Below are positions 1 through 43,472 of a stretch of 43,472 nt of DNA, in pieces. A program made the position numbers and the translations under genes. Position 1 is the stretch's first letter. Each line of letters opens with the position of its first letter. The DNA comes from a virus (Duplodnaviria > Heunggongvirae > Uroviricota > Caudoviricetes), in the IMG/VR virus record IMGVR_UViG_2737471820_000002. One strand, written 5' to 3'. Below the pieces are notes generated by a model that was not told the origin of the DNA, searched no databases, and saw only the letters and a list, made by a program, of their open reading frames with translations.

Positions 1-1275
1 TTAATCACTCAACGTCTTTAATTCTTTGAGCAATTTAGCTTTATCATCATCATTTTTAATAGATGAGATAATCTTCTCAGTTAATGCTAACAATCTAACG
101 AACATTTCGTTTAGCTCTTCATCGTTAGGTGTTTCTATACCATGAAGTAAGTTATTTCTGATTCTTTTAAAATAGTTTAGTTCAAATGACTCTTCTCGCG
201 TCAGCACTCCGTCAGAAACCAATGGCTCAAATTTTGCGGTGAAGAATTTTTTGTGCTGGCGATTGTTTTGATTATGAATTAAAGAGACTGCTTTTTCTAG
301 TAAAATCCATGTTTTAACAAATGACTCAAACCCTGATACATCCTTATGTTCCCCAAGAGCACGTTTGAAATAACTTGAAAGTTTTAAATTACCTCCAACG
401 CTCTTGTATGAATCATTAATAAACATAAGAAGCAATTGATCTGTGATTGTTTCTTTTTCACTTTGATTAATTTTACGCAAATATTCAGAAAGTTCACTGA
501 CGCTTATGCTAGAATTACCCTTGAGATAATTAAATAAAATTTTAGTATCACCTAATTTAAGTTTGCTTATATAATTCTTATTTAGTGAGTTGGTTATAAA
601 ACTCGTTAACTCATATCTATTTGAAATATTATCTTTTTCTTTAGTTCTTTTTGCTATGGCTTTTTGAAGTCTTTCAAGAGCTATTTCGCCAGTAAGCACT
701 AATCCATTAATCTCATCTAGAATTGCAAGTTCCTCTTCAGATAAATCGCCTGCTAGAGGTTTGTAAACAAGGTCATGTTCGACTTCGGACCAGGCATGCA
801 TAAGAACCGATGCTACTTGAATCTCAAATAATGCACTTTCGTAACGCTTATTATTTTGGTTAGAGTTTTTCAAATTGACACGATAATGAGATGCCCAGTA
901 ACCAGAGAACCTTTTTTCAAATTTAGGTTTATAAGATGCTTCTGGAAAGTTTTTCTTTTTCCGGACATTAAATAAAAAATTAATAGTTTCATCAACTACT
1001 TCTCTATCTTTTGGAAAATATAAAGCTACTCGAACACCGGCCAGGTCGAAAATATCTTCATATATATTAGCAACATCTGCATATGCTGACTTTTCATTTC
1101 TTTGATTAAGTTTTTGTTCTAAGCGGTCTGGTCGCTTAGCTCTGAATGAAACTATGGCTTTAATCCCTCTCTTTTCCAATTCCTGCTCGAGCAAGCTTGA
1201 GCCTATTTTTGCCAACTCAGAATAGTAATCATACTGCTTGCTATATTGTTCTAAAAAATCTTTTATGACACTCAT
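1..1275 (-). CDS. RelA/SpoT-family nucleotidyltransferase fused to a C-terminal HEPN-like domain (toxSAS/CapRel-like candidate defence protein)
   Basis: N-terminal region has synthetase-type motifs (FRAKRPDRLEQKL, DIFDLAGVRVALYF, EIQVASVLMHAWSEVEHDLVYK); C-terminal region ends with RIRNNLLHG, matching the HEPN RNxxxH signature; AGGAG-type RBS about 13 nt upstream of the ATG; very AT-rich. Confidence 0.6.
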   Translation of the reverse strand: MSVIKDFLEQYSKQYDYYSELAKIGSSLLEQELEKRGIKAIVSFRAKRPDRLEQKLNQRNEKSAYADVANIYEDIFDLAGVRVALYFPKDREVVDETINFLFNVRKKKNFPEASYKPKFEKRFSGYWASHYRVNLKNSNQNNKRYESALFEIQVASVLMHAWSEVEHDLVYKPLAGDLSEEELAILDEINGLVLTGEIALERLQKAIAKRTKEKDNISNRYELTSFITNSLNKNYISKLKLGDTKILFNYLKGNSSISVSELSEYLRKINQSEKETITDQLLLMFINDSYKSVGGNLKLSSYFKRALGEHKDVSGFESFVKTWILLEKAVSLIHNQNNRQHKKFFTAKFEPLVSDGVLTREESFELNYFKRIRNNLLHGIETPNDEELNEMFVRLLALTEKIISSIKNDDDKAKLLKELKTLSD

Positions 1276-30140: not shown

Positions 30141-30303
30141 GATTCCTCCTTGCTGCCAGTCGCAACCATTTTTTATCAACCAGGCTAGCGGTATATCCGA
30201 GCAGTGTTGGTATTTCGGATGGCTTCAGCTCAGGCTTACGCTTACGACGATTAGATACTCTGTAGATGTGTCCGTTCATGACACGAATAAGCGGTGTAGC
30301 CAT
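30133..30303 (-). CDS. NinE-like small basic protein
   Basis: 56-aa [59 protein letters not shown], overlapping both neighbours; below the ORF-track threshold. Confidence 0.4.
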   Translation of the reverse strand: MATPLIRVMNGHIYRVSNRRKRKPELKPSEIPTLLGYTASLVDKKWLRLAARRNHG

Positions 30304-30758
30304 TACGCCTCCTGCTTGTCGCGGAGCAGCTGGAACTCGCAGCTCTGCGGAATAGTCAGGTGGCAGCCAATATTCATCGCCCAGGCTTCAACCTTACACA
30401 GGAAGACATACATCTCTCCGGTATCGAGATCGGAGGTATGACGTAATGACTGAATGGTGGTGATTTCACCGGTTACGACATCAACCAGTTCTTTGGTTTC
30501 ATAACCGAGATAAGTGTGTTTGAGAGCATCTTTTACCCAAGGTGGAGTGGCGAACGTTTTACCCCTGCTGATGAGGTATTCACTGATTTCGCTGTACCAC
30601 ATGTGGCTGAGTGCATTCTGGGAAAGACTGCGTCTCTCGCGCCACGGTTTAAGCACCATGCGAAAGCATTTGCCGTCCTCCAGATAAGGCTGGATCTGCT
30701 GACCGATAGCGGTGAAGTTACCACGATGCAATTTGATGCCATCTTGTAGGAGGTTCAC
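30303..30758 (-). CDS. YbcN-like (DUF1367) nin-region protein
   Basis: 151 aa starting [15 protein letters not shown]..., resembling DLP12 YbcN. Confidence 0.55.
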
Positions 30759-30947
30759 GATTCACCTCCGCAGAGGTCAAACGCTGGATGCAAAAAATCG
30801 CAGGTGCATTTCTGCATCTGTGACAGCAAAAGAGAGTTTAGATTGTATGTGCGCATAAACGTCCCCGTTTAGCGCAGAAGTCACCGATGTTGTTCAGGCT
30901 CCGGTGACATTATTATTGCTGGTTGATTATGGAAAATCAAAGGTAGA

Positions 30948-31430
30948 TTAATTTAATAATCCTTGGAGAAATCTCACGCACCACCTCAATAGTTGCGCTT
31001 GCTCTTGAGAATCAACAAAAAGATAAGCGTCTTTATTTCCGTGGAAAAGGTTATTTCTTATCCTTATAACTATCTTTAATACTGTAGACATGGTGTTTAG
31101 ATCTGTTGCTGCGTCATTTTGAAGTCCATTAACTATTCCCCGCCTATCTCTCTCTCGACCGACACAGAGGGCGTCAAGTCTTTCCTGCGCATCCCCATTC
31201 AAAATGTATCTCTGCTTAAAATCGTGAAAAAGTTCGTTGGGCACCTTTATCCCGGCGTCAAGTAACGTTCGCGCATAATTTAAACTGTCTTCCCCCTTAG
31301 CAAAGCCACCAAAAAAACTTTGCTCGACCCTAGGAAAAATCATGCAGAATTGAAGATAAACATCAATCAGTTCATCAGATGGAGGCTCCGATAAATTAAG
31401 TAACCGCTGCAGTCCTTCTGCACTTATCAT
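30948..31430 (-). CDS. HEPN-domain protein (predicted RNase toxin-like), gene 3 of the nin-region cassette
   Basis: 160 aa; C-terminal RIRNNLFHG matches the HEPN RNxxxH motif; AT-rich; start ATG overlaps the upstream small-ORF stop (ATGA). Confidence 0.55.
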
Positions 31431-31675
31431 TTTTCACCTTCCTGCTTAAGATGTCGAGGAGCGGATGCCTTGGGCAGCGCGATGCTCTGCTCGCGGTAAT
31501 GTCGTGGCCGCTCCAAAAAATAGTCCCGCAAATGCTCAGGCTGCTCACGCATCACCGCTTCGGCAATAACCGGTATATTAAGGCGCTCTTTGTAGGTAAC
31601 TCAGGAGACAGCAAGGTCAACGTTAACCTTCTCGCGCTCTTCTTGTGTTTTAGCGGCAATATTCCGCTTCGACAT
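31430..31675 (-). other. Small ORF interrupted by an in-frame TGA (24 + 56 codons), translationally coupled to the HEPN gene
   Basis: [87 protein letters not shown]; AGGAG lies upstream of the first ATG; an internal ATG at 31552 would give a 41-aa peptide. Confidence 0.3.
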
Positions 31676-31686
31676 GGCGTTACGTT

Positions 31687-32439
31687 TTACTCCTTTTTGG
31701 GTGCATACACGTTGTTTATCCGTTCAATATGAATAGTTACATCCGGGCTTTCTAAGAATAAGAAGTCAATCAAATGACCAATGAGAATGCAGGCATCATT
31801 AATAGAGGACCTTGTGACTTTAATCCCTCCATGACTGCCGTGATTCCCCAACCACTTTAACGCCATGAATGCATCTTTATTTGGTCCCAGTTTATCTGAA
31901 TAATTTGTGATTCTTTCATGCGTAGAAAGACGTATTATCTTGCCTTTAACTGTTTTCTCTCTTGGTACATCAAGACTATCAAGCATCATCTCCAGTATGG
32001 TTCTCATGGTGTTCACCGCTGAAGCTGGGTGCGAGGGGATCAGAGCTGATACTTCCGCCAAGAGATCAGCTATATCTTCAGGGCACTTTTCAGGAAACAG
32101 GAATAGAGGAAGTGGTGGATAGAAATACTTAGGACGGAAACCAGAAACATACCAACGCTCCGTCATTTCGTCATTGAAGCATTCTACAGCAACAACCTGC
32201 CCAGACAAAGCAACCTTCTCCTGGCAGGCTTGGCGGGTACAGCGCAGCACGCAACTGAATACTCCTCCCGACATTTCCTCATCAAACCATACTTCATCTC
32301 TAAACTGAGTTGTTGCGCTTGAATCAGTTTCTACAAAACTATCAGCGACAATCTCCAGTGTTTCATTCATACAGTTCGGGCAGCGCCAAGCTGGTGCGTC
32401 ATTTCGTTTAAACGTGGCATACAGTAATTTAGGATCCAT
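31687..32439 (-). CDS. Zinc-ribbon protein with C-terminal HEPN-like (possibly DUF4145-like) domain, gene 1 of the nin-region cassette
   Basis: 250 aa; N-terminal Cys cluster WRCPNC...SCVLRC...QAC; C-terminal KWLGNHGSHGG aligns with RIRNNLxHG but lacks the Arg; GGAG RBS 9 nt upstream; AT-rich. Confidence 0.45.
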   Translation of the reverse strand: MDPKLLYATFKRNDAPAWRCPNCMNETLEIVADSFVETDSSATTQFRDEVWFDEEMSGGVFSCVLRCTRQACQEKVALSGQVVAVECFNDEMTERWYVSGFRPKYFYPPLPLFLFPEKCPEDIADLLAEVSALIPSHPASAVNTMRTILEMMLDSLDVPREKTVKGKIIRLSTHERITNYSDKLGPNKDAFMALKWLGNHGSHGGIKVTRSSINDACILIGHLIDFLFLESPDVTIHIERINNVYAPKKE

Positions 32440-32727
32440 ATTTTTTTCTCCGTGCTTAACGTTTTTGGTTGCGTTAACACTCTATAGGATTTTGCAGCCT
32501 TTACTAGTTCATACCCAACCGGTCTTAGTAGGCATATTGAATTACAATCAGCTAATTAAGTTCCTCTACATCGAGGGTATAGTCGCATCAGCAACACGGA
32601 ACTCGCGCTCAAATTCTGCAAGATCCTGCTCAAGTGCAACGTAGTTTTCGCAACACAACCATGACGCCCTCAGCACTCTCTACCACATCGCAATGGCACG
32701 AATACCCACACACTCATAACGTTTCGC

Positions 32728-33021
32728 TTATACCCCTCCCCTCCCCCAAAACATCAATACCCGTTTCATCACGGCACTCTGGCGACACTCCTTGAAAATC
32801 AGGTTCGTGCTCACCTTTCCTTCCCGCTCCTCCCTGGTAGCGAACCGGTAATACACCGTTCGCCAGACCTTGCGATCAACGACCAGGATTCCTGCCCGTG
32901 CCATTTTGGCTGCTGCCTGATTGATGCTGGTTACAGTCACGCCTGTTGCCGCAGCTACATCCGGCGCGCAGAAAGTCCGGTGCGTTTTCAGGTAGTGAAG
33001 AATTGCCTCTTTGCCTGTCAT
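32728..33021 (-). CDS. ren: Ren protein
   Basis: MTGKEAILHYLKTHRTFCAPDVAAATGVTVTSINQAAAKMARAG... near-identical to lambda Ren. Confidence 0.85.
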   Translation of the reverse strand: MTGKEAILHYLKTHRTFCAPDVAAATGVTVTSINQAAAKMARAGILVVDRKVWRTVYYRFATREEREGKVSTNLIFKECRQSAVMKRVLMFWGRGGV

Positions 33022-33719
33022 ACACTGGCTCCTTTCAGTCCGAACTTAGCTTTGATTTCTGCGATCTTCGCCAGAGCCTGAGCCCGGTTAAGTGGTCTAC
33101 CGCCCATGACAGGAAGTTGTTTTACTGGTTCAGGTATCGCCTCACCACGATTAATTCGCGCGGTCATACAAGTCAGTTCATCGGCAGCCTTGCGCCGTAA
33201 TTCCGCATCAGTCAGCGCATTGGCCCGCATGTTCTGATACAGGTTGGTAACCAACCAGTAGTGCGCGTTTGATTTCCATGGATAAGACTCTGCATCCGGA
33301 TAAAGGCCACGCTTCCGGCAATACTCGTAAACCATATCAACCAGCTCGCTGGCGTTTGGCAGCCCGGCGTTAACGGATGCTTCTTCCCGGCACCAGGCGA
33401 CAAACTGCCCGGGTGATGGCAGGAATGGTCGATTCTGCCGACGGGCTACGCGCATTCCTGCGTTAACCTGTTCCATTGTGGTGATCCCGTTTTCCCGGAA
33501 AGCCAGAACCCACTGGCGGCGGATTTCGTTCAGTTCATTCTGGTCACGGTTAGCCAGGCTCGCCGGGAAAGTTGCCAGTAACTGGCTGAACACACCGTTG
33601 ATGATCTGCGCTACCTGCTGTACCTGCGGCTTTTCGTCGTACTGTTCCGGCATGTTGTTGGCGATCCGGCGCATCTGCTCACGGTCAAAGTTAACCATCT
33701 GTGCGGCGATGTTTTTCAT
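33018..33719 (-). CDS. P: Replication protein P (DnaB helicase loader)
   Basis: MKNIAAQMVNFDREQMRRIANNMPEQYDEKPQVQQVAQIING... near-identical to lambda P. Confidence 0.92.
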   Translation of the reverse strand: MKNIAAQMVNFDREQMRRIANNMPEQYDEKPQVQQVAQIINGVFSQLLATFPASLANRDQNELNEIRRQWVLAFRENGITTMEQVNAGMRVARRQNRPFLPSPGQFVAWCREEASVNAGLPNASELVDMVYEYCRKRGLYPDAESYPWKSNAHYWLVTNLYQNMRANALTDAELRRKAADELTCMTARINRGEAIPEPVKQLPVMGGRPLNRAQALAKIAEIKAKFGLKGASV

Positions 33720-34645
33720 AAATCCACCCCGTAAATCCAGTCAGTGTTTGTCAGGTCGAGTTTTGATTTTCCGGTTGTCACGCCAGCCTGTTGCTTGTTA
33801 CGGTTGATTTCGAGTTGGGTCCACTTGTCGCGGAGTTTGGCCGGACTCAGCACGTTACCGGACCAGAAGTTGTCCTGGCATGCCCAGCGGAACAGCACGC
33901 ACATGTCGCGGTGGTTACGTCCGTCACGTTCACGCATCAGGCGGATATCGTTAGCCCACCCTGCAATATTCGGTTTTCTGGCTGAGGGCGCGATGGTCTT
34001 CACCATGTTAAACATCCACTCTGCGGCGGTCAGGTCTTCTGCTGTCCCCCACTTGCTGCCGCTCTGAATTGCAGCATCCAGTTTCTCCAAAGGAAAGTCG
34101 TTTTCTGGCTGGTCAGAGGATTCGCCAGAATTCTCGGACGAAAAAGGTTTTATATTGTCTTTTGTTAGTTTGTCTTTTGTGTTTACCTGATTCGGGTAAA
34201 CGCCTTTACCTGATTTGGGTAAACTTTTCTTACCTGATTCAGGTAAATTTACCTCTTTCAGGTAAACTTTATTTTTCTTACCTGATTCGGGTAATGTTGA
34301 CCATTCACTGACCACATTATTAATGCCGATATTCCGCCCACTCTGAATAAAAATCCCACGCTTTACCAGAACACTTTTTGCAGCAGAACACTTGTGCGGC
34401 AATATCCCGGTCAACTCGGAAAGTTGCTCGTTGCTCACCCAATCCAGTTTTTTATTAAAGCCATATGTTTTGCGCATGACAGCCAGGAAGACCAGAAGCT
34501 GGTGCTGTGTTAATCCGGCCAGCATCACAGCTTCCAGCAACTCATTTGCAATGCGCGTATAACCATCATCGAGATCTGCCACGCGCGGCTCCTTTTGTGC
34601 CGCATCCGGCACTGGAAAATTGAATATCTCAGCAGTGTTTGCCAT
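33716..34645 (-). CDS. O: Replication initiator O
   Basis: MANTAEIFNF...VADLDDGY...RKTYGFNK resembles the lambda O N-terminus; iterons lie inside the gene; GGGAGG RBS; start at the internal ATG rather than 34735. Confidence 0.8.
   Translation of the reverse strand: MANTAEIFNFPVPDAAQKEPRVADLDDGYTRIANELLEAVMLAGLTQHQLLVFLAVMRKTYGFNKKLDWVSNEQLSELTGILPHKCSAAKSVLVKRGIFIQSGRNIGINNVVSEWSTLPESGKKNKVYLKEVNLPESGKKSLPKSGKGVYPNQVNTKDKLTKDNIKPFSSENSGESSDQPENDFPLEKLDAAIQSGSKWGTAEDLTAAEWMFNMVKTIAPSARKPNIAGWANDIRLMRERDGRNHRDMCVLFRWACQDNFWSGNVLSPAKLRDKWTQLEINRNKQQAGVTTGKSKLDLTNTDWIYGVDL
34182..34297. repeat. Replication origin iterons (5 copies of about 19 bp, TTACCTGATTCGGGTAAA-like) inside O, with an adjacent AT-rich tract
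   Basis: tttacctgattcgggtaaac / tttacctgatttgggtaaac / cttacctgattcaggtaaat / tttacctctttcaggtaaac / cttacctgattcgggtaatg, each with internal dyad symmetry; AT-rich stretch at 34141-34181. Confidence 0.75.
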
Positions 34646-34731
34646 AATTCCTCCCGCAATGAGTGTGTTACGATTTGCACCTGAAAGTCGGTTCTGTTCC
34701 AGCAGACCGGCTTTCGCCATTTCTGAACCTG

Positions 34732-35271
34732 TCATATCGCCCCCAGCATGGTAGTAACCATCGCCATCAATGGACCAGCCAGATCTGGGTCCACACGAAA
34801 CATCGACACAATACCTTCACTAATTTCCTTCAGTTTCTGGTGGCGTGGTGCGTTGAGAATGACAGCCTGTTTTGCCTCACTGAGTTCCTTTTCCATTTCA
34901 GCCAACCTAGCCATGAAGCTATCCTGCTCAACCAGGTAACCGCGATATTCCAGCGGTAGTACCGCCAGAATTGCCGGGGTCAGTTCACGCACATTATTTC
35001 GGTATTTTTCAGAATCGAATTTGTTATCGAGGAAGCGGAACAGCTTCTGGCGTGCACGGCTGACATCATCAGGGAAATCGATGGTGCCGCCGCCCTGCTC
35101 CCGATACTCATTCACAATGAGTGTGGCAACGACATCCTGATTATCTACAGCCGACCAGGCGCGGACGGCATCACGGATTTTTTCGTGGCCTGGCACCTGT
35201 TTTGTTTGAGAACGATTTATCACCGCAGTCGGGCTAAATCCGCTAGTCTGTTGGTATGTAAGTGGTTGCAT
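34732..35271 (-). CDS. CII-like regulatory protein (YdaT/CP76-type)
   Basis: 179 aa directly downstream of cro and upstream of O, the cII position; ATGA overlap with O. Confidence 0.45.
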   Translation of the reverse strand: MQPLTYQQTSGFSPTAVINRSQTKQVPGHEKIRDAVRAWSAVDNQDVVATLIVNEYREQGGGTIDFPDDVSRARQKLFRFLDNKFDSEKYRNNVRELTPAILAVLPLEYRGYLVEQDSFMARLAEMEKELSEAKQAVILNAPRHQKLKEISEGIVSMFRVDPDLAGPLMAMVTTMLGAI

Positions 35272-40652: not shown

Positions 40653-40974
40653 GGCCTGTCAGTTTCTTAAGATATCCAGACCAACCGCCACCAACTGGAT
40701 ACGAACAGGCCGCCTACAGGCAACACGCAAAGACCCCACTAAACCAAAATCTCCTTACCTCACAACGCGACAAGCCTGCATTGCGGCGCTTCAGTCTCCG
40801 CTGCATACTATCAAGGTGAGCGCGGGTGATGGCATAACAGAGGAAAGAAAATGTCACTCTTCCGCAGAAGTGAAATATGGTACGCCAGTTTCACATTGCC
40901 GAACGGTAAAAGATTTAAACAGTCTCTTGGAACAAAGGACAAAAGGCAGGCGACAGAGCTCCATGACAAGCTAA
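40624..40974 (+). CDS. xis: Excisionase (AlpA/Xis-like HTH); 3' boundary uncertain
   Basis: [36 protein letters not shown] is an Xis-type HTH; overlaps the int 5' end as lambda xis does. Confidence 0.5.
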
Positions 40975-42014
40975 AGGCTGAAGCATGGCGGGTCAGCAAA
41001 CTTGGTGAAATACCTGATATGACGTTTGAGGAAGCGTGTGTCAGGTGGCTCGAAGAGAAAGCACATAAAAAATCACTGGACGATGACAAAAGCCGGATCG
41101 GATTCTGGCTTCAACATTTCGCAGGAATGCAACTAAGAGACATTACTGAATCAAAAATTTATTCAGCAATGCAGAAAATGACGAACCGGCGTCATGAGGA
41201 AAACTGGAAACTCAGGGCAGAAGCATGCAGAAAAAAAGGGAAACCTGTTCCAGAATACACGCCAAAACCAGCGTCCGTTGCAACGAAGGCTACGCATCTT
41301 TCATTTATAAAGGCCCTACTAAGAGCCGCAGAGCGTGAATGGAAAATGCTGGATAAGGCACCAATTATTAAAGTGCCTCAACCAAAGAATAAACGGATCC
41401 GCTGGCTGGAGCCCCATGAAGCACAAAGGCTGATTGATGAATGTCCGGAGCCATTAAAGTCTGTTGTTGAATTTGCACTGGCAACAGGCTTAAGACGCTC
41501 GAACATCATCAACCTTGAATGGCAACAAATAGATATGCAGCGCCGGGTGGCATGGATAAACCCGGAAGAGAGTAAATCAAACCGCGCAATTGGCGTTGCG
41601 CTGAATGATACTGCATGTCGCGTATTGAAAAAACAAATCGGGAATCATCACCGTTGGGTATTTGTGTACAAGGAAAGCTGTACCAAACCAGACGGAACGA
41701 AAGCGCCAACAGTAAGGAAGATGCGGTATGACGCAAACACAGCCTGGAAAGCGGCGCTGAGACGGGCTGGTATTGATGATTTCAGATTTCACGACTTGAG
41801 ACACACCTGGGCAAGTTGGCTGGTTCAAGCCGGAGTCCCGTTGTCAGTGTTACAGGAAATGGGAGGCTGGGAGTCTATCGAAATGGTTCGTCGATATGCT
41901 CACCTTGCACCTAATCACCTTACCGAACACGCACGGCAAATAGACTCGATCCTGAACCCATCGGTCCCAAATTTGTCCCAGTCAAAAAATAAGGAAGGTA
42001 CTAATGATGTGTAA
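40851..42014 (+). CDS. int: Tyrosine integrase
   Basis: 387 aa; C-terminal [10 protein letters not shown]...VRRYAH catalytic motifs; adjacent to the tRNA 3' end. Confidence 0.9.
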
Positions 42015-42028
42015 CTTATTGATTTTAA

Positions 42029-42104
42029 TGGTGCCGATAATAGGAGTCGAACCTACGACCTTCGCATTACGAATGCGCTGCTCTACCAACTGAGCTATAT
42101 CGGC
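42029..42104 (-). tRNA. thrW: tRNA-Thr (anticodon CGU)
   Basis: Minus-strand sequence GCCGATATAGCTCAGTTGGTAGAGCAGCGCATTCGTAATGCGAAGGTCGTAGGTTCGACTCCTATTATCGGCACCA has GTTCGA T-loop, anticodon CGT flanked by T and A, and 3' CCA. Confidence 0.85.
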
Positions 42105-42218
42105 CCTGAAAGGACATGTTCACGAACGTGAATCACGGTGGACAAGGTTAAAACTAACCGGGCGATGCGTCAATGGCCTTGTGAATCAAATGGCTACTTT
42201 TGCATCACCCGGTTTTAT

Positions 42219-43472
42219 TTACGCACGAATGGTGTAATCACCAATGCCGATCCACTTGTAAGTGGTCAGTGCTTCCAGCCCCATTGGGCCACGCGCGTGG
42301 AGTTTTTGTGTGCTTACCGCCACTTCCGCACCCAGACCAAACTGGCCGCCGTCGGTAAAACGCGTAGAGGCGTTAACGTAAACAGCGGACGAATCCACTT
42401 CGTTAACAAAACGCTGGGCGTTGCGCATATCGCGGGTCAGGATCGCATCGGAGTGTTGTGTGCCGTGTTCACGAATATGGGCGATGGCATCGTCAAGATC
42501 GCTGACGATTTTGACGTTCAAATCTAATGACAGAAACTCATCGTCATACTCTTCGGCTTTAACAGCAACCACCTTCGCAGGGCCTGCCTGCAACTGCGCC
42601 AGTGCAGCTGCATCTGCGTGTAATGTCACGCCGCTTTCCGCCATTTGTTTGCTTAATGCGGGCAGGAAGCTATCGGCGATGTTTTTATTCACCAGCAACG
42701 TTTCAACCGTATTACATGTGCTCGGACGCTGAGTTTTCGCGTTGACGATCACTTTTAATGCTTCAGCGATCTCTACACTTTCATCAACGTAAATATGGCA
42801 TACGCCTATACCACCTGTGATCACCGGGATTGTCGACTGTTCACGGCACAGTTTATGCAAACCAGCGCCACCACGCGGGATCAGCATGTCGATGTATTTA
42901 TCCATACGCAGCATTTCACTGACCAGCGCACGGTCAGGATTATCAATCGCCTGCACGGCACCCGCCGGTAAGCCGCAGGATTTCAGGGCGTCCTGAATCA
43001 CCGCCACCGTTGCAGCGTTAGTGCGACACGTTTCTTTGCCACCGCGCAGGATCACCGCATTACCGGTTTTCAGGCACAGCGAAGCGACATCAACCGTCAC
43101 GTTCGGGCGCGCTTCATAAATCACGCCAATAACCCCCAGCGGTACGCGACGACGCTCAAGACGCAGGCCGCTGTCCAGTACGCCGCCATCGATTACCTGC
43201 CCCACCGGATCGGCGAGGTTGCACACCTGACGTACATCGTCGGCAATGCCTTTCAGCCGTGCGGGCGTCAGTGCCAGACGGTCAAGCATCGCTTCGCTAA
43301 GGCCATTGGCTCGCGCGTCAGCAACATCCTGGGCGTTAGCGTTGAGGATGATTTCGCTTTGTGCTTCCAGTTCATCGGCGATTTTTTCCAGCACGCGATT
43401 TTTTTCGCGGCTGGAGAGTTGCGCTAATTTATACGAGGCTTGCTTCGCGGCAATGCCCATTTGTTCCAGCAT
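42219..43472 (-). CDS. proA: Gamma-glutamyl phosphate reductase
   Basis: 417 aa, complete, recognisable as E. coli ProA over its whole length. Confidence 0.95.

Follow-up and report, generated by a model that had tools for sequence, protein, structure and literature searches.

Two independent candidate anti-phage genes and a dead hot copy between them in the accessory slot of an E. coli lambdoid prophage

An AT-rich cargo segment of ca. 1.8 kb in an E. coli lambda-like prophage carries two genes that we propose, on the basis of sequence comparison and structure prediction, as independent candidate anti-phage genes, with a dead copy of hot lying between them. The window analyzed here is the whole 43,472-nucleotide stretch of Caudoviricetes DNA in IMG/VR record IMGVR_UViG_2737471820_000002, for which an initial annotation had presented the same three reading frames as an undescribed three-gene HEPN system. 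As first presented, this system does not hold. The arrangement is best explained, with somewhat better than even confidence, as mosaic cargo in a hotspot where two independent modules, i.e., gene 1 on the one hand and hot with gene 3 on the other, stand side by side.

The boundaries of the cargo segment (Table 1) are marked by phage PhiR30_1, whose homology to the prophage backbone breaks at position 30945 and picks up again at 32755, and which has an acyltransferase and a lipoprotein at the cargo position of the same backbone instead. The GC content of the cargo is 0.39-0.46 vs 0.50-0.55 in the flanks, with gene 1 (0.436) and gene 3 (0.408) below ren (0.548), P (0.541), and ybcN (0.502); the middle frame is not AT-rich (0.514). 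These data agree with what had initially been noted about the location, namely three tightly packed minus-strand reading frames between ren and ybcN, the AT-richness of genes 1 and 3 relative to their surroundings, and horizontal acquisition. The interrupted homology and the different cargo of PhiR30_1 thus support a horizontally acquired segment in an accessory slot of the prophage. Only 11 nt separate gene 1 from the middle frame, which in turn overlaps gene 3 by 4 nt (ATGA), so the modules are probably co-transcribed here. A Shine-Dalgarno sequence (GGAG) is found 10 nt ahead of the ATG of gene 1. No strong sigma-70 site was detected by consensus scanning of the 288-bp spacer upstream of this gene, and the promoter and terminator consensus matches were no more numerous than those in shuffled sequence. 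An assignment of the whole window to a prophage of E. coli IAI1 was rejected because the 100% identity is confined to the cassette; the immunity/integrase end of the window matches strain 14EC001, adjoining proA.

Table 1. Positions of the cargo segment, its genes and motifs, and the flanking genes in the window.
Feature	Position	Strand	Basis or remark
ybcN, flank of the cassette	30303-30758		
Variable cargo segment at the ren|orf33-ybcN junction of the lambdoid prophage	30946..32754	.	holds genes 1-3 and spacer
Gene 3, 160 aa, WP_000622057.1 family, candidate small HEPN-like effector	30948..31430	-	phrog_27260; own Shine-Dalgarno AGGAAGGTG
Gene 3 signature R123-I-R-N-N-L-F-H130-G-N-K-D-A-Y136, R-N-x3-H HEPN-type	31023..31064	-	end of predicted long helix
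Gene 2, pseudogene, phage P1 hot-type homologue of DNA polymerase III theta, 82 codons	31427..31675	-	RefSeq "internal stop"; PF06440
In-frame TGA at hot codon 25 instead of Gly (GGA/GGC in intact orthologues)	31601..31603	-	codon alignment
Gene 1, 250 aa, WP_000371307.1, Zn-ribbon + DUF4145/HEPN	31687..32439	-	stand-alone candidate phage-triggered RNase, RAZR-like architecture
Gene 1 C-terminal HEPN (DUF4145) domain, aa 121-250	31690..32079	-	
Gene 1 putative active-site motif K195-W-L-G-N-H-G-S-H203	31831..31857	-	end of long helix 181-203
Gene 1 N-terminal beta-rich Cys domain, aa 1-107, presumed zinc-ribbon sensor	32119..32439	-	Cys conservation and model
AT-rich spacer 5' of gene 1, 288 bp, part of the cargo	32440..32727	-	sequence
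ren-like wHTH gene, flank of the cassette	32728-33021		

The three frames had originally been read as one phage-triggered RNase system in which gene 1 serves as a sensor with a degenerate HEPN domain that pairs with the active HEPN domain of gene 3, while the middle frame contributes a third component. This reading would fit the tight packing on one strand, the presence of HEPN-type motifs in both flanking proteins, and the joint inheritance of genes 1-3 at 98-100% identity (found in 48/5,426 complete E. coli genomes). Nevertheless, we consider it very unlikely, primarily because the genes go separate ways elsewhere. In enterobacterial lambdoid prophages, gene 3 always follows hot irrespective of whether gene 1 is present. 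Its homologues in prophages of Klebsiella, Salmonella, and Enterobacter (74-83% identity) have hot directly before them and gene 1 is absent, and the E. coli prophages L023-25 and OkiPb01694 combine a decayed hot and an intact gene 3 with a PRTase and a NADAR gene where gene 1 would be. Outside lambdoid phages, the relatives of gene 3 have no hot neighbor in the loci examined. Conversely, gene 1 homologues stand without hot and gene 3 next to Septu PtuA/PtuB (E=1.7e-148 / 1.8e-93) between gpV and gpS in P2-like prophages of Serratia, after gpA/DinI in the P2-like phage SEN8, and by an integrase or umuDC elsewhere. Among the loci examined, genes 1 and 3 never occur together outside this E. coli lineage, and the conserved co-occurrence of genes 1-3 across lineages by which an operon or toxin-antitoxin system would be recognized was not found. 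The profiles of genes 1 and 3 also share no similarity, and no evidence was found for the heterodimer of an active and a degenerate HEPN domain that had been proposed for them. Given that gene 1 and hot with gene 3 are independent everywhere else examined, they do not constitute a single functional cassette and are probably two modules with separate evolutionary histories that happen to lie side by side.

The middle frame had been described as a small open reading frame of about 80 codons, but an in-frame TGA interrupts it, and RefSeq annotates it as a theta (DNA polymerase III subunit) pseudogene. By sequence, gene 2 represents a hot/theta homologue that has decayed and is no component of any system, which further weakens the three-gene reading. 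Its orthologues resemble HOT of phage P1 (PDB 1SE7/2IDO) and HolE of E. coli and belong to the theta/HOT family (PF06440), with an intact orthologue scoring 105 bits against this profile (E=1.4e-30) and matching P1 HOT (1SE7) over its full length (E=7e-35). The C-terminal fragment of 42 aa in the window scores 34.0 bits against PF06440, just below the cut-off of 34.6. Unlike P1 HOT, the copy in the window is a pseudogene that is cut short by the TGA at codon 25, and it resides not in P1 but in the nin region of a lambdoid prophage. The same TGA is common to all gene-1-bearing E. coli and IMG/VR loci that are readable at this codon (L001, L002, L016-L022, L026, L027, and L032). In total, hot shows at least three distinct lesions, i.e., this TGA, a frameshift that L002 carries in addition, and other stops in L008 and L023-25. 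Read-through of the TGA or its use for selenocysteine was rejected in light of the RefSeq pseudogene assignment and the frameshifts and additional stops of sister lineages. A role of hot as antitoxin or partner of gene 3 was likewise set aside as unlikely, since gene 3 persists where hot has decayed independently. Dead here and inactivated repeatedly elsewhere, hot is therefore dispensable for gene 3.

Gene 1 encodes the N-terminal cysteine cluster and the C-terminal KWLGNHGSHGG where the initial annotation had seen them, with CPNC corresponding to C20/C23, CVLRC to C63/C67, and KWLGNHGSHGG to K195..H203. The five cysteines C20, C23, C63, C67, and C72 as well as K195, G198, N199, S202, and H203 are invariant in alignments of 15 and 7 family members down to 32% identity, and the dN/dS of the gene is 0.12. 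The N-terminal domain is modeled with strands at residues 27-30, 36-39, 58-67, 75-88, and 95-107 and has no Pfam match, zinc ribbons included. A conserved linker, FYPPLPLF (aa 106-113), precedes the C-terminal domain, which matches Pfam DUF4145 (PF13643, clan CL0291; E=7.9e-12, 45.5 bits with a cut-off of 23.1), a family classed as HEPN (PMC3710099). The AlphaFold2 model (pLDDT 86.8) shows the four-helix up-down HEPN fold, so that both the profile search and the structure prediction initially suggested for this protein came out in favor of a HEPN domain. Gene 1 matched no PADLOC profile at E<=1. PADLOC-DB 2.0 contains a model for PD-T7-4. The accession of gene 1 is not among the entries listed from the DefensePredictor tables (PMC13092281).

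The HEPN domain of gene 1 had been called degenerate for want of an arginine. At the end of helix 3, the protein indeed lacks the Rx4-6H catalytic motif and shows K-x7-H instead, composed of Lys195 and H203. However, Lys195 is invariant across the family, so the absence of Arg does not reflect degeneration; a selected, invariant K..H pair is also at odds with the degenerate partner required by the one-system reading. A different possibility is that gene 1 encodes a catalytically inactive HEPN-fold protein, e.g., a nucleic-acid-binding regulator, and no RNase effector. Several observations would be in line with this, including the missing canonical Arg (R146 in RAZR), the lack of any RAZR match by sequence or structure, a share of ca. 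20% of DUF4145 members without the motif (PMC3710099), and the assignment to phrog_1305, which is labeled "DNA binding protein" without experimental support. We nevertheless regard an inactive protein as improbable because the invariant H203, K195, G198, N199, and S202 sit where helix 3 ends and the canonical active site is located, lysine can provide the same positive charge, and two arginines of gene 1 itself (R146 and R176) are invariant as well. In addition, its homologues reside in defense hotspots, both next to Septu and at the gpA-side slot of P2.

Gene 3 belongs to a large, unnamed family of stand-alone proteins of ca. 165 aa, for which exhaustive search retrieved at least 1,452 clusters (50% identity). 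The initially noted canonical RNxxxH motif near its C-terminus (RIRNNLFHG, R123-G131) withstands comparison to 79 relatives that are only 19-27% identical, since E36, R74, R123, H130, and G131 are invariant in this alignment and R125, N126, N127, and K133 are kept in at least 90% of the sequences. The family consensus reads RxRNNLFHGxK and continues to a tryptophan (R-x-R-N-N-L-F-H-G-x-K-W). Purifying selection is apparent from a dN/dS of 0.10-0.16. HEPN RNases are recognized by R-[NDH]-x3-H at a helix end and a conserved upstream acidic residue (PMC3710099), and in gene 3 R125-N-N-L-F-H130 ends a predicted helix (residues 108-129 of a low-confidence model) and E36 is invariant upstream. Judging from the invariant E36, R74, R123, and H130, the latter two in the motif R-x-R-N-N-L-F-H-G-x-K, gene 3 most likely acts as a small, metal-independent RNase of HEPN-like type. 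None of the 79 family members matched Pfam, PDB, PADLOC, or NCBIfam, and hhalign comparisons of the family to RiboL-PSP HEPN and DUF4145 were not significant; the PADLOC search that had been recommended for the locus, performed at the profile level, was thus empty for gene 3 as for gene 1. The AlphaFold2 model obtained from a 9-sequence alignment had a pLDDT of 44, and its Foldseek matches are meaningless. A word-indexed search returned 8 close and 3 remote matches, and a scan of viral contigs returned near-identical E. coli copies only.

Independent work on the DefensePredictor model has already listed gene 3 (as WP_000622059.1 of cluster WP_000622057.1) in its Table S10 as "Predicted novel defense gene" with a mean log-odds of 12.94, in a study where the validation rate climbs with log-odds (PMC13092281). 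The same resource reports a weak HHblits match to the RiboL-PSP HEPN of PD-T4-2_B (Prob 59.5) and no Foldseek match to known defense proteins (PMC13092281). The model draws on genomic context, so the score of gene 3 is not independent of its location. Remote relatives are found in the cargo of mobile genetic elements such as prophages, plasmids, ICE-like, and Tn7-like elements, and one of them has genes for SSB, topoisomerase III (TopB), and an orphan DNA methylase around it in a region that resembles an ICE or plasmid. Counter-defense genes also reside in such regions.

Gene 3, possibly along with hot, could instead benefit the phage or another mobile element, either as an anti-defense factor or as an accessory of replication or establishment that targets the replisome of the host together with the theta homologue. 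The strict adjacency of gene 3 to hot in a geometry suggestive of translational coupling across four enterobacterial genera and the company of the remote relative near SSB would be in line with such a role. The same holds for the lack of any PADLOC match and for the fact that gene 3 has neither an antitoxin nor a sensor domain, as a toxic RNase usually would. Conversely, several independent lesions inactivated hot, whereas gene 3 stayed intact and constrained, and relatives of gene 3 outside lambdoid phages do without a hot neighbor. Furthermore, R-N-x3-H with an invariant Glu is typical of HEPN RNases (PMC3710099), and the DefensePredictor score is high. On balance, we view a benefit to the phage as rather unlikely, though less so than an inactive gene 1.

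The preferred reading, two unrelated modules in one slot, gains from the content of this slot in sibling E. coli prophages. The PRTase and NADAR proteins encoded there are 51% and 82% identical to those of the validated system DS-32 (PMC13092281), and these homologues fill the slot of gene 1 between P and hot with gene 3. The DS-32 proteins are unrelated to gene 1 and bear only on the position as a hotspot. On these sequence comparisons, the junction at which the replication genes (P/ren) meet the nin region (orf33-ybcN) is a defense hotspot in lambdoid prophages, and a role of genes 1 and 3 as defense cargo is plausible. What remains of the candidate defense module proposed at the outset is thus this plausible role, but not a single three-gene system.

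By analogy to RAZR (PD-T7-4), the N-terminal domain of gene 1 as the first module would recognize a protein of an infecting phage, upon which the HEPN domains would dimerize or oligomerize, and the RNase thus activated would stop translation and lead to abortive infection. Catalysis would involve H203 and, where an Arg is usual, the invariant Lys195. The second module would comprise hot, a P1-type homologue of DNA polymerase III theta that is dead here, and gene 3, which is under purifying selection and would act in conflicts between phages and hosts or among mobile elements, with defense as the leading guess. The long companionship of gene 3 and hot/theta in enterobacterial lambdoid phages might hint at a trigger or target related to the replisome. 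More tentatively, the gene 3 family might form a new class of minimal HEPN-like conflict effectors, immune or counter-immune, that have neither a fused sensor nor a cognate antitoxin, and gene 1 might separately be a Lys-type analogue of RAZR whose enlarged zinc ribbon senses a different phage structure. If confirmed, gene 3 would provide the first function for a widespread dark family that is among the strongest machine-learning predictions of DefensePredictor in E. coli. The lambdoid hotspot between the replication genes and ninB/ybcN swaps RAZR-like, DS-32-like, and other cargo, which makes it a useful site for mining further systems.

Calling the locus undescribed was an overstatement given that the combination of a zinc finger with a DUF4145-type HEPN domain is known from PD-T7-4/RAZR and that gene 3 had already been listed by DefensePredictor. 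Among the entries listed, neither gene is identical to a protein of the experimentally validated DefensePredictor systems DS-1..45. Gene 3 appears only in Table S10, which collects predicted, uncharacterized clusters, and the candidate equations of gene 1 with DS-38 or DS-29 and of gene 3 with DS-28B were rejected because the sequences differ. DS-38 (ZnF+HEPN, PMC13092281) is a validated single-gene defense in which a HEPN nuclease domain is fused to a second domain; it has 366 aa with an N-terminal RxxRNxxxH HEPN domain and C-terminal multi-Cys fingers. BxaP (PMC10799925) and Ishtar1 (bioRxiv 10.64898/2026.07.06.735840) are also single-gene systems that join a DUF4145 HEPN nuclease domain to another domain, though with the HEPN domain at the N-terminus and with different partner domains. 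All three proteins are unlike gene 1. Gene 3 differs from HEPN RNase toxins such as HepT/MNT or RiboL-PSP HEPN proteins (PMC3710099) in that it has no MNT or other antitoxin and no sensor domain, and neither profile nor structure comparison gave a significant match to any HEPN family. It resembles them in the R-N-x3-H motif that ends a predicted long helix, with a loop and one final helix behind it, in the polar residue after the Arg, and in the invariant upstream Glu, and at the motif level it has the pattern RNxxxHxxKxxY in common with a RiboL-PSP HEPN protein.

The closest known parallel to gene 1 in architecture is RAZR/PD-T7-4 of E. coli UMB1727 (RRL46918.1, 219 aa; Vassallo 2022, PMC9519451), for which structures are available (PDB 9Y6U and 9Y9C; Zhang et al. 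Nature 2026, PMC13017515). RAZR assembles into higher-order oligomers around ring-shaped phage proteins and cleaves ssRNA, resulting in abortive infection, and its catalytic pair is R146/H154, with R146A abolishing defense (PMC13017515). Searches by phmmer with gene 1 and SEN8 gp49 and by hmmsearch with the family profile detected no homology to RAZR at E<=10, while Gp77 of 9Y6U/9Y9C was found as a control at E=1e-142 and RAZR entries were present in the database; RAZR is also absent from the top structural matches of the gene 1 model. Gene 1 is 31 aa longer than RAZR, has a larger, beta-rich N-terminal domain with five invariant cysteines where RAZR has Cys4, and carries an invariant Lys at the position of the catalytic Arg in all family members. 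However, both are stand-alone proteins on mobile elements, RAZR being a single-gene system, and both combine an N-terminal Cys domain (a zinc ribbon in RAZR, presumed to be one in gene 1), a conserved linker, and a C-terminal divergent HEPN domain of the DUF4145 type with a basic residue and a His spaced 8 apart (K195/H203 vs R146/H154). Confirmation for gene 1 would mean that the RAZR principle, in which a zinc-ribbon sensor gates a DUF4145 HEPN RNase, also operates in a lineage that is unrelated in sequence and has Lys for Arg, and it would help to define the true requirements of the active site and the sensor domain.

The locus of gene 1, the middle frame and gene 3 is plausible defence cargo, and it is not the undescribed three-gene HEPN system proposed by the initial annotation, whose observations were largely correct and whose interpretation was partly correct. 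The window is a lambdoid prophage integrated beside proA, and its right end (40851-43472) is the attachment site because the integrase gene abuts proA; at the integrase end it shares 99.8% identity with E. coli 14EC001. The stretch at 30900-32500 recurs with 100% identity in a prophage carried by E. coli IAI1 and several other strains, and it is matched in 56 of 5,426 complete E. coli genomes (at least 80% covered in 48 of these). Although this cassette is common to both, the immunity region of the window differs from that of the IAI1 prophage, in which an ImmA/IrrE metallopeptidase and a DUF4411 protein that are absent from the window lie beside a cI-like repressor (comparison locus L032, 5363-7011).

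Features of the window and of the corresponding slot in two comparison prophages (L023 and L034)
Feature	Coordinates	Strand	Remark
integrase	40851-42014		adjoins proA
proA	42219-43472	minus	
O	33716-34735	minus	
P	33018-33719	minus	
ren-like wHTH gene	32728-33021	minus	
spacer	between ren-like wHTH gene and gene 1	minus (gene order)	288 bp
gene 1	31687-32439	minus	250 aa
middle frame (hot)	31427-31675	minus	
gene 3	30948-31430	minus	160 aa
orf33, then ybcN, ninE, ybcO, rusA	after gene 3; ybcN 30303-30758	minus (gene order)	
PRTase-CE + NADAR slot	L023 1083-2716; L034 3816-5449		L034 is E. coli OkiPb01694; followed by decayed hot and intact gene 3

The AT-richness described initially holds for gene 1 (GC 0.436) and gene 3 (0.408) compared with flanks of 0.50-0.55, but not for the middle frame (0.514). 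This frame had been taken for an open gene of about 80 codons and is instead a dead hot gene, with an in-frame TGA at 31601-31603 where intact orthologues encode Gly (GGA/GGC); in RefSeq it is listed as a pseudogene, named "DNA polymerase III subunit theta" and marked with an internal stop. An intact Salmonella orthologue matches PF06440 (E=1.4e-30), and its closest solved structure is phage P1 HOT (1SE7, E=7e-35), to which it is nearer than to E. coli theta (2e-17). The TGA is identical in all gene-1-bearing E. coli loci where the stretch is readable, while the hot gene of Enterobacter mori carries a different stop and that of E. coli loci L023-25 and the OkiPb01694 prophage is heavily decayed. 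Across lineages, hot shows at least three different lesions (window 31427-31675; L002, L008, L023-L025), yet dN/dS among intact copies is only 0.07-0.12, which points to a once-constrained gene that has been lost recently and repeatedly. It would be a passenger irrelevant to gene 3. A 93-aa ORF on the plus strand (31451-31732), antisense to hot and the end of gene 1, had no match in Pfam and is probably spurious.

Judged from sequence comparisons, the cassette is a juxtaposition of two modules rather than one system, because gene 1 and the hot-gene 3 pair occur separately and their profiles share no similarity (profile-profile comparison of gene 1 and gene 3). Gene-3 homologues of 74-83% identity are found in lambdoid prophages of Klebsiella, Salmonella and Enterobacter, where hot lies immediately upstream of every one, overlapping it by the same 4 nt, and gene 1 was not found nearby; DNA homology of the window to these loci begins at ca. 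31665, i.e., at the start of hot. Conversely, the gene-1 homologues examined in Serratia, SEN8 and Pantoea occur without hot or gene 3. These are located between gpV and gpS in P2-like prophages of Serratia (70% identity; adjoined by Septu, with PtuA at E=1.7e-148 and PtuB at E=1.8e-93), after gpA/DinI at the phage end in the P2-like Salmonella phage SEN8 (36%), and beside integrase or umuDC in Pantoea and Serratia (44-48%). Within this mosaic, the tight spacing makes co-transcription of gene 1, hot and gene 3 likely in the window. Just downstream of gene 3, a promoter-like site, TTGATT-17-AATAAT, lies on the minus strand (30912-30940), inside a stretch (30701-30941) matching phage 82 record X92588, in which -35/-10 signals and the binding site of a regulator are annotated close to orf33/orf151 (ybcN). 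Truncated cassettes are present in some E. coli, i.e., LR-46 (H53) as well as D9 and NCTC9038 (H51, H52), and one truncated cassette is interrupted beside an IS3-family transposase; the cargo is therefore eroding in some lineages.

The position of these genes is a cargo and defence hotspot. Homology of the window to PhiR30_1, a phage with the same backbone, ends at 30945 and restarts at 32755, and the cargo of PhiR30_1 at this place is an acyltransferase and a lipoprotein. In E. coli L023-25 and OkiPb01694 prophages, gene 1 is replaced by PRTase-CE and NADAR proteins, which share 51% and 82% identity with DS-32A and DS-32B, respectively (sequences from DefensePredictor Table S8), and DS-32 was validated experimentally in that study (PMC13092281). 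A prophage of E. mori encodes a 633-aa NACHT protein directly downstream of the gene-3 homologue and before dinI (L008, 6875-8776); PADLOC gave no hit for this protein at E<=1e-5, and its gene is a possible NLR-type defence gene of this region.

Of the loose ends, the gene-3 family is the most interesting. Gene 3 itself had no match in sequence searches of Pfam, PADLOC, NCBIfam and PDB, and a set of 50,697 phage records yielded no copy. When 1.84 billion representatives were searched exhaustively with HMMER, its family came to 1,452 clusters at E<=1e-3, of which 145 reach E<=1e-30; nearly all are stand-alone proteins of 160-175 aa. Across an alignment of 79 sequences (19-27% identity to gene 3), F28, E36, R74, L88, R123, H130 and G131 are invariant and at least 90% of the sequences retain R125, N126, N127, K133 and W134, giving the consensus ...LLWSLFE...YFxxRY...YRLRNNLFHGxKWxY.... 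None of the 79 matches Pfam, NCBIfam, PADLOC or PDB, and the source databases label them "hypothetical protein". Remote relatives are carried in a Rep3 plasmid-like contig, an ICE/plasmid-like region (with AcaB, SSB, TopB and an orphan methylase) and a Tn7-like element, all without hot nearby. Two remote relatives have unannotated neighbours, one a 244-aa ORF beginning 2 nt after the stop of the relative (L030, 834-1568) and the other an upstream 174-aa ORF (L031, 934-1458); both lack a Pfam match and might act as partners in part of the family.

Gene 3 evolves under purifying selection (dN/dS = 0.10-0.16). Its R-N-x3-H motif closes a predicted helix, has Asn next to the Arg and is preceded further upstream by an invariant Glu; at the motif level this fits the HEPN definition. 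Alignment to a RiboL-PSP HEPN protein by hhalign covered only the motif, and the AF2 model has a pLDDT of 44, its Foldseek matches being meaningless. The family is large and uncharacterised, and an earlier computational screen already marked it as defensive: DefensePredictor Table S10 lists WP_000622059.1 (cluster WP_000622057.1; mean log-odds 12.94) as "Predicted novel defense gene" and gives for it no hit by Foldseek and a weak HHblits match (q_cov 0.29, Prob 59.5) to PD-T4-2_B, in its RiboL-PSP HEPN (PMC13092281). Of the 94 units tested in that study, 45% were validated, with a rate that climbs with log-odds, and gene 3 is absent from the validated systems (PMC13092281). Gene 3 is a candidate small HEPN-like RNase in conflicts between mobile elements and hosts, for which defence is a more likely role than counter-defence.

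Gene 1 matches DUF4145 (E=8e-12, aa 132-216), an established HEPN family with noted fusions to zinc ribbons (PMC3710099), and we count its HEPN fold as established. All motifs that had been quoted for gene 1 and gene 3 are indeed present. In 15 homologues with identities as low as 32%, and also in SEN8 gp49, C20, C23, C63, C67, C72, N143, R146, E150, R176, K195, G198, N199, S202 and H203 are invariant, and a dN/dS of 0.12 compared with the Serratia orthologue again indicates purifying selection. Gene 1 may encode an RNase that is triggered by phage through its presumed zinc-ribbon domain, the putative sensor, and that acts by abortive infection. RAZR (PD-T7-4) is a single-gene abortive infection system of 219 aa that combines a zinc finger with DUF4145 (PMC13017515, PMC9519451); it polymerises around rings of phage portal or Erf-like protein, then cleaves ssRNA, and requires its residues R146 and H154 (PMC13017515). 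Validated DUF4145 or HEPN defence proteins such as BxaP, Ishtar1 and DS-38 have architectures unlike gene 1, whereas RAZR has the architecture presumed for gene 1 and the same spacing of eight residues from basic residue to His, though RAZR's Arg is an invariant Lys in gene 1. Gene 1 is therefore best classed as a new version of RAZR's known ZnF-DUF4145 HEPN architecture.
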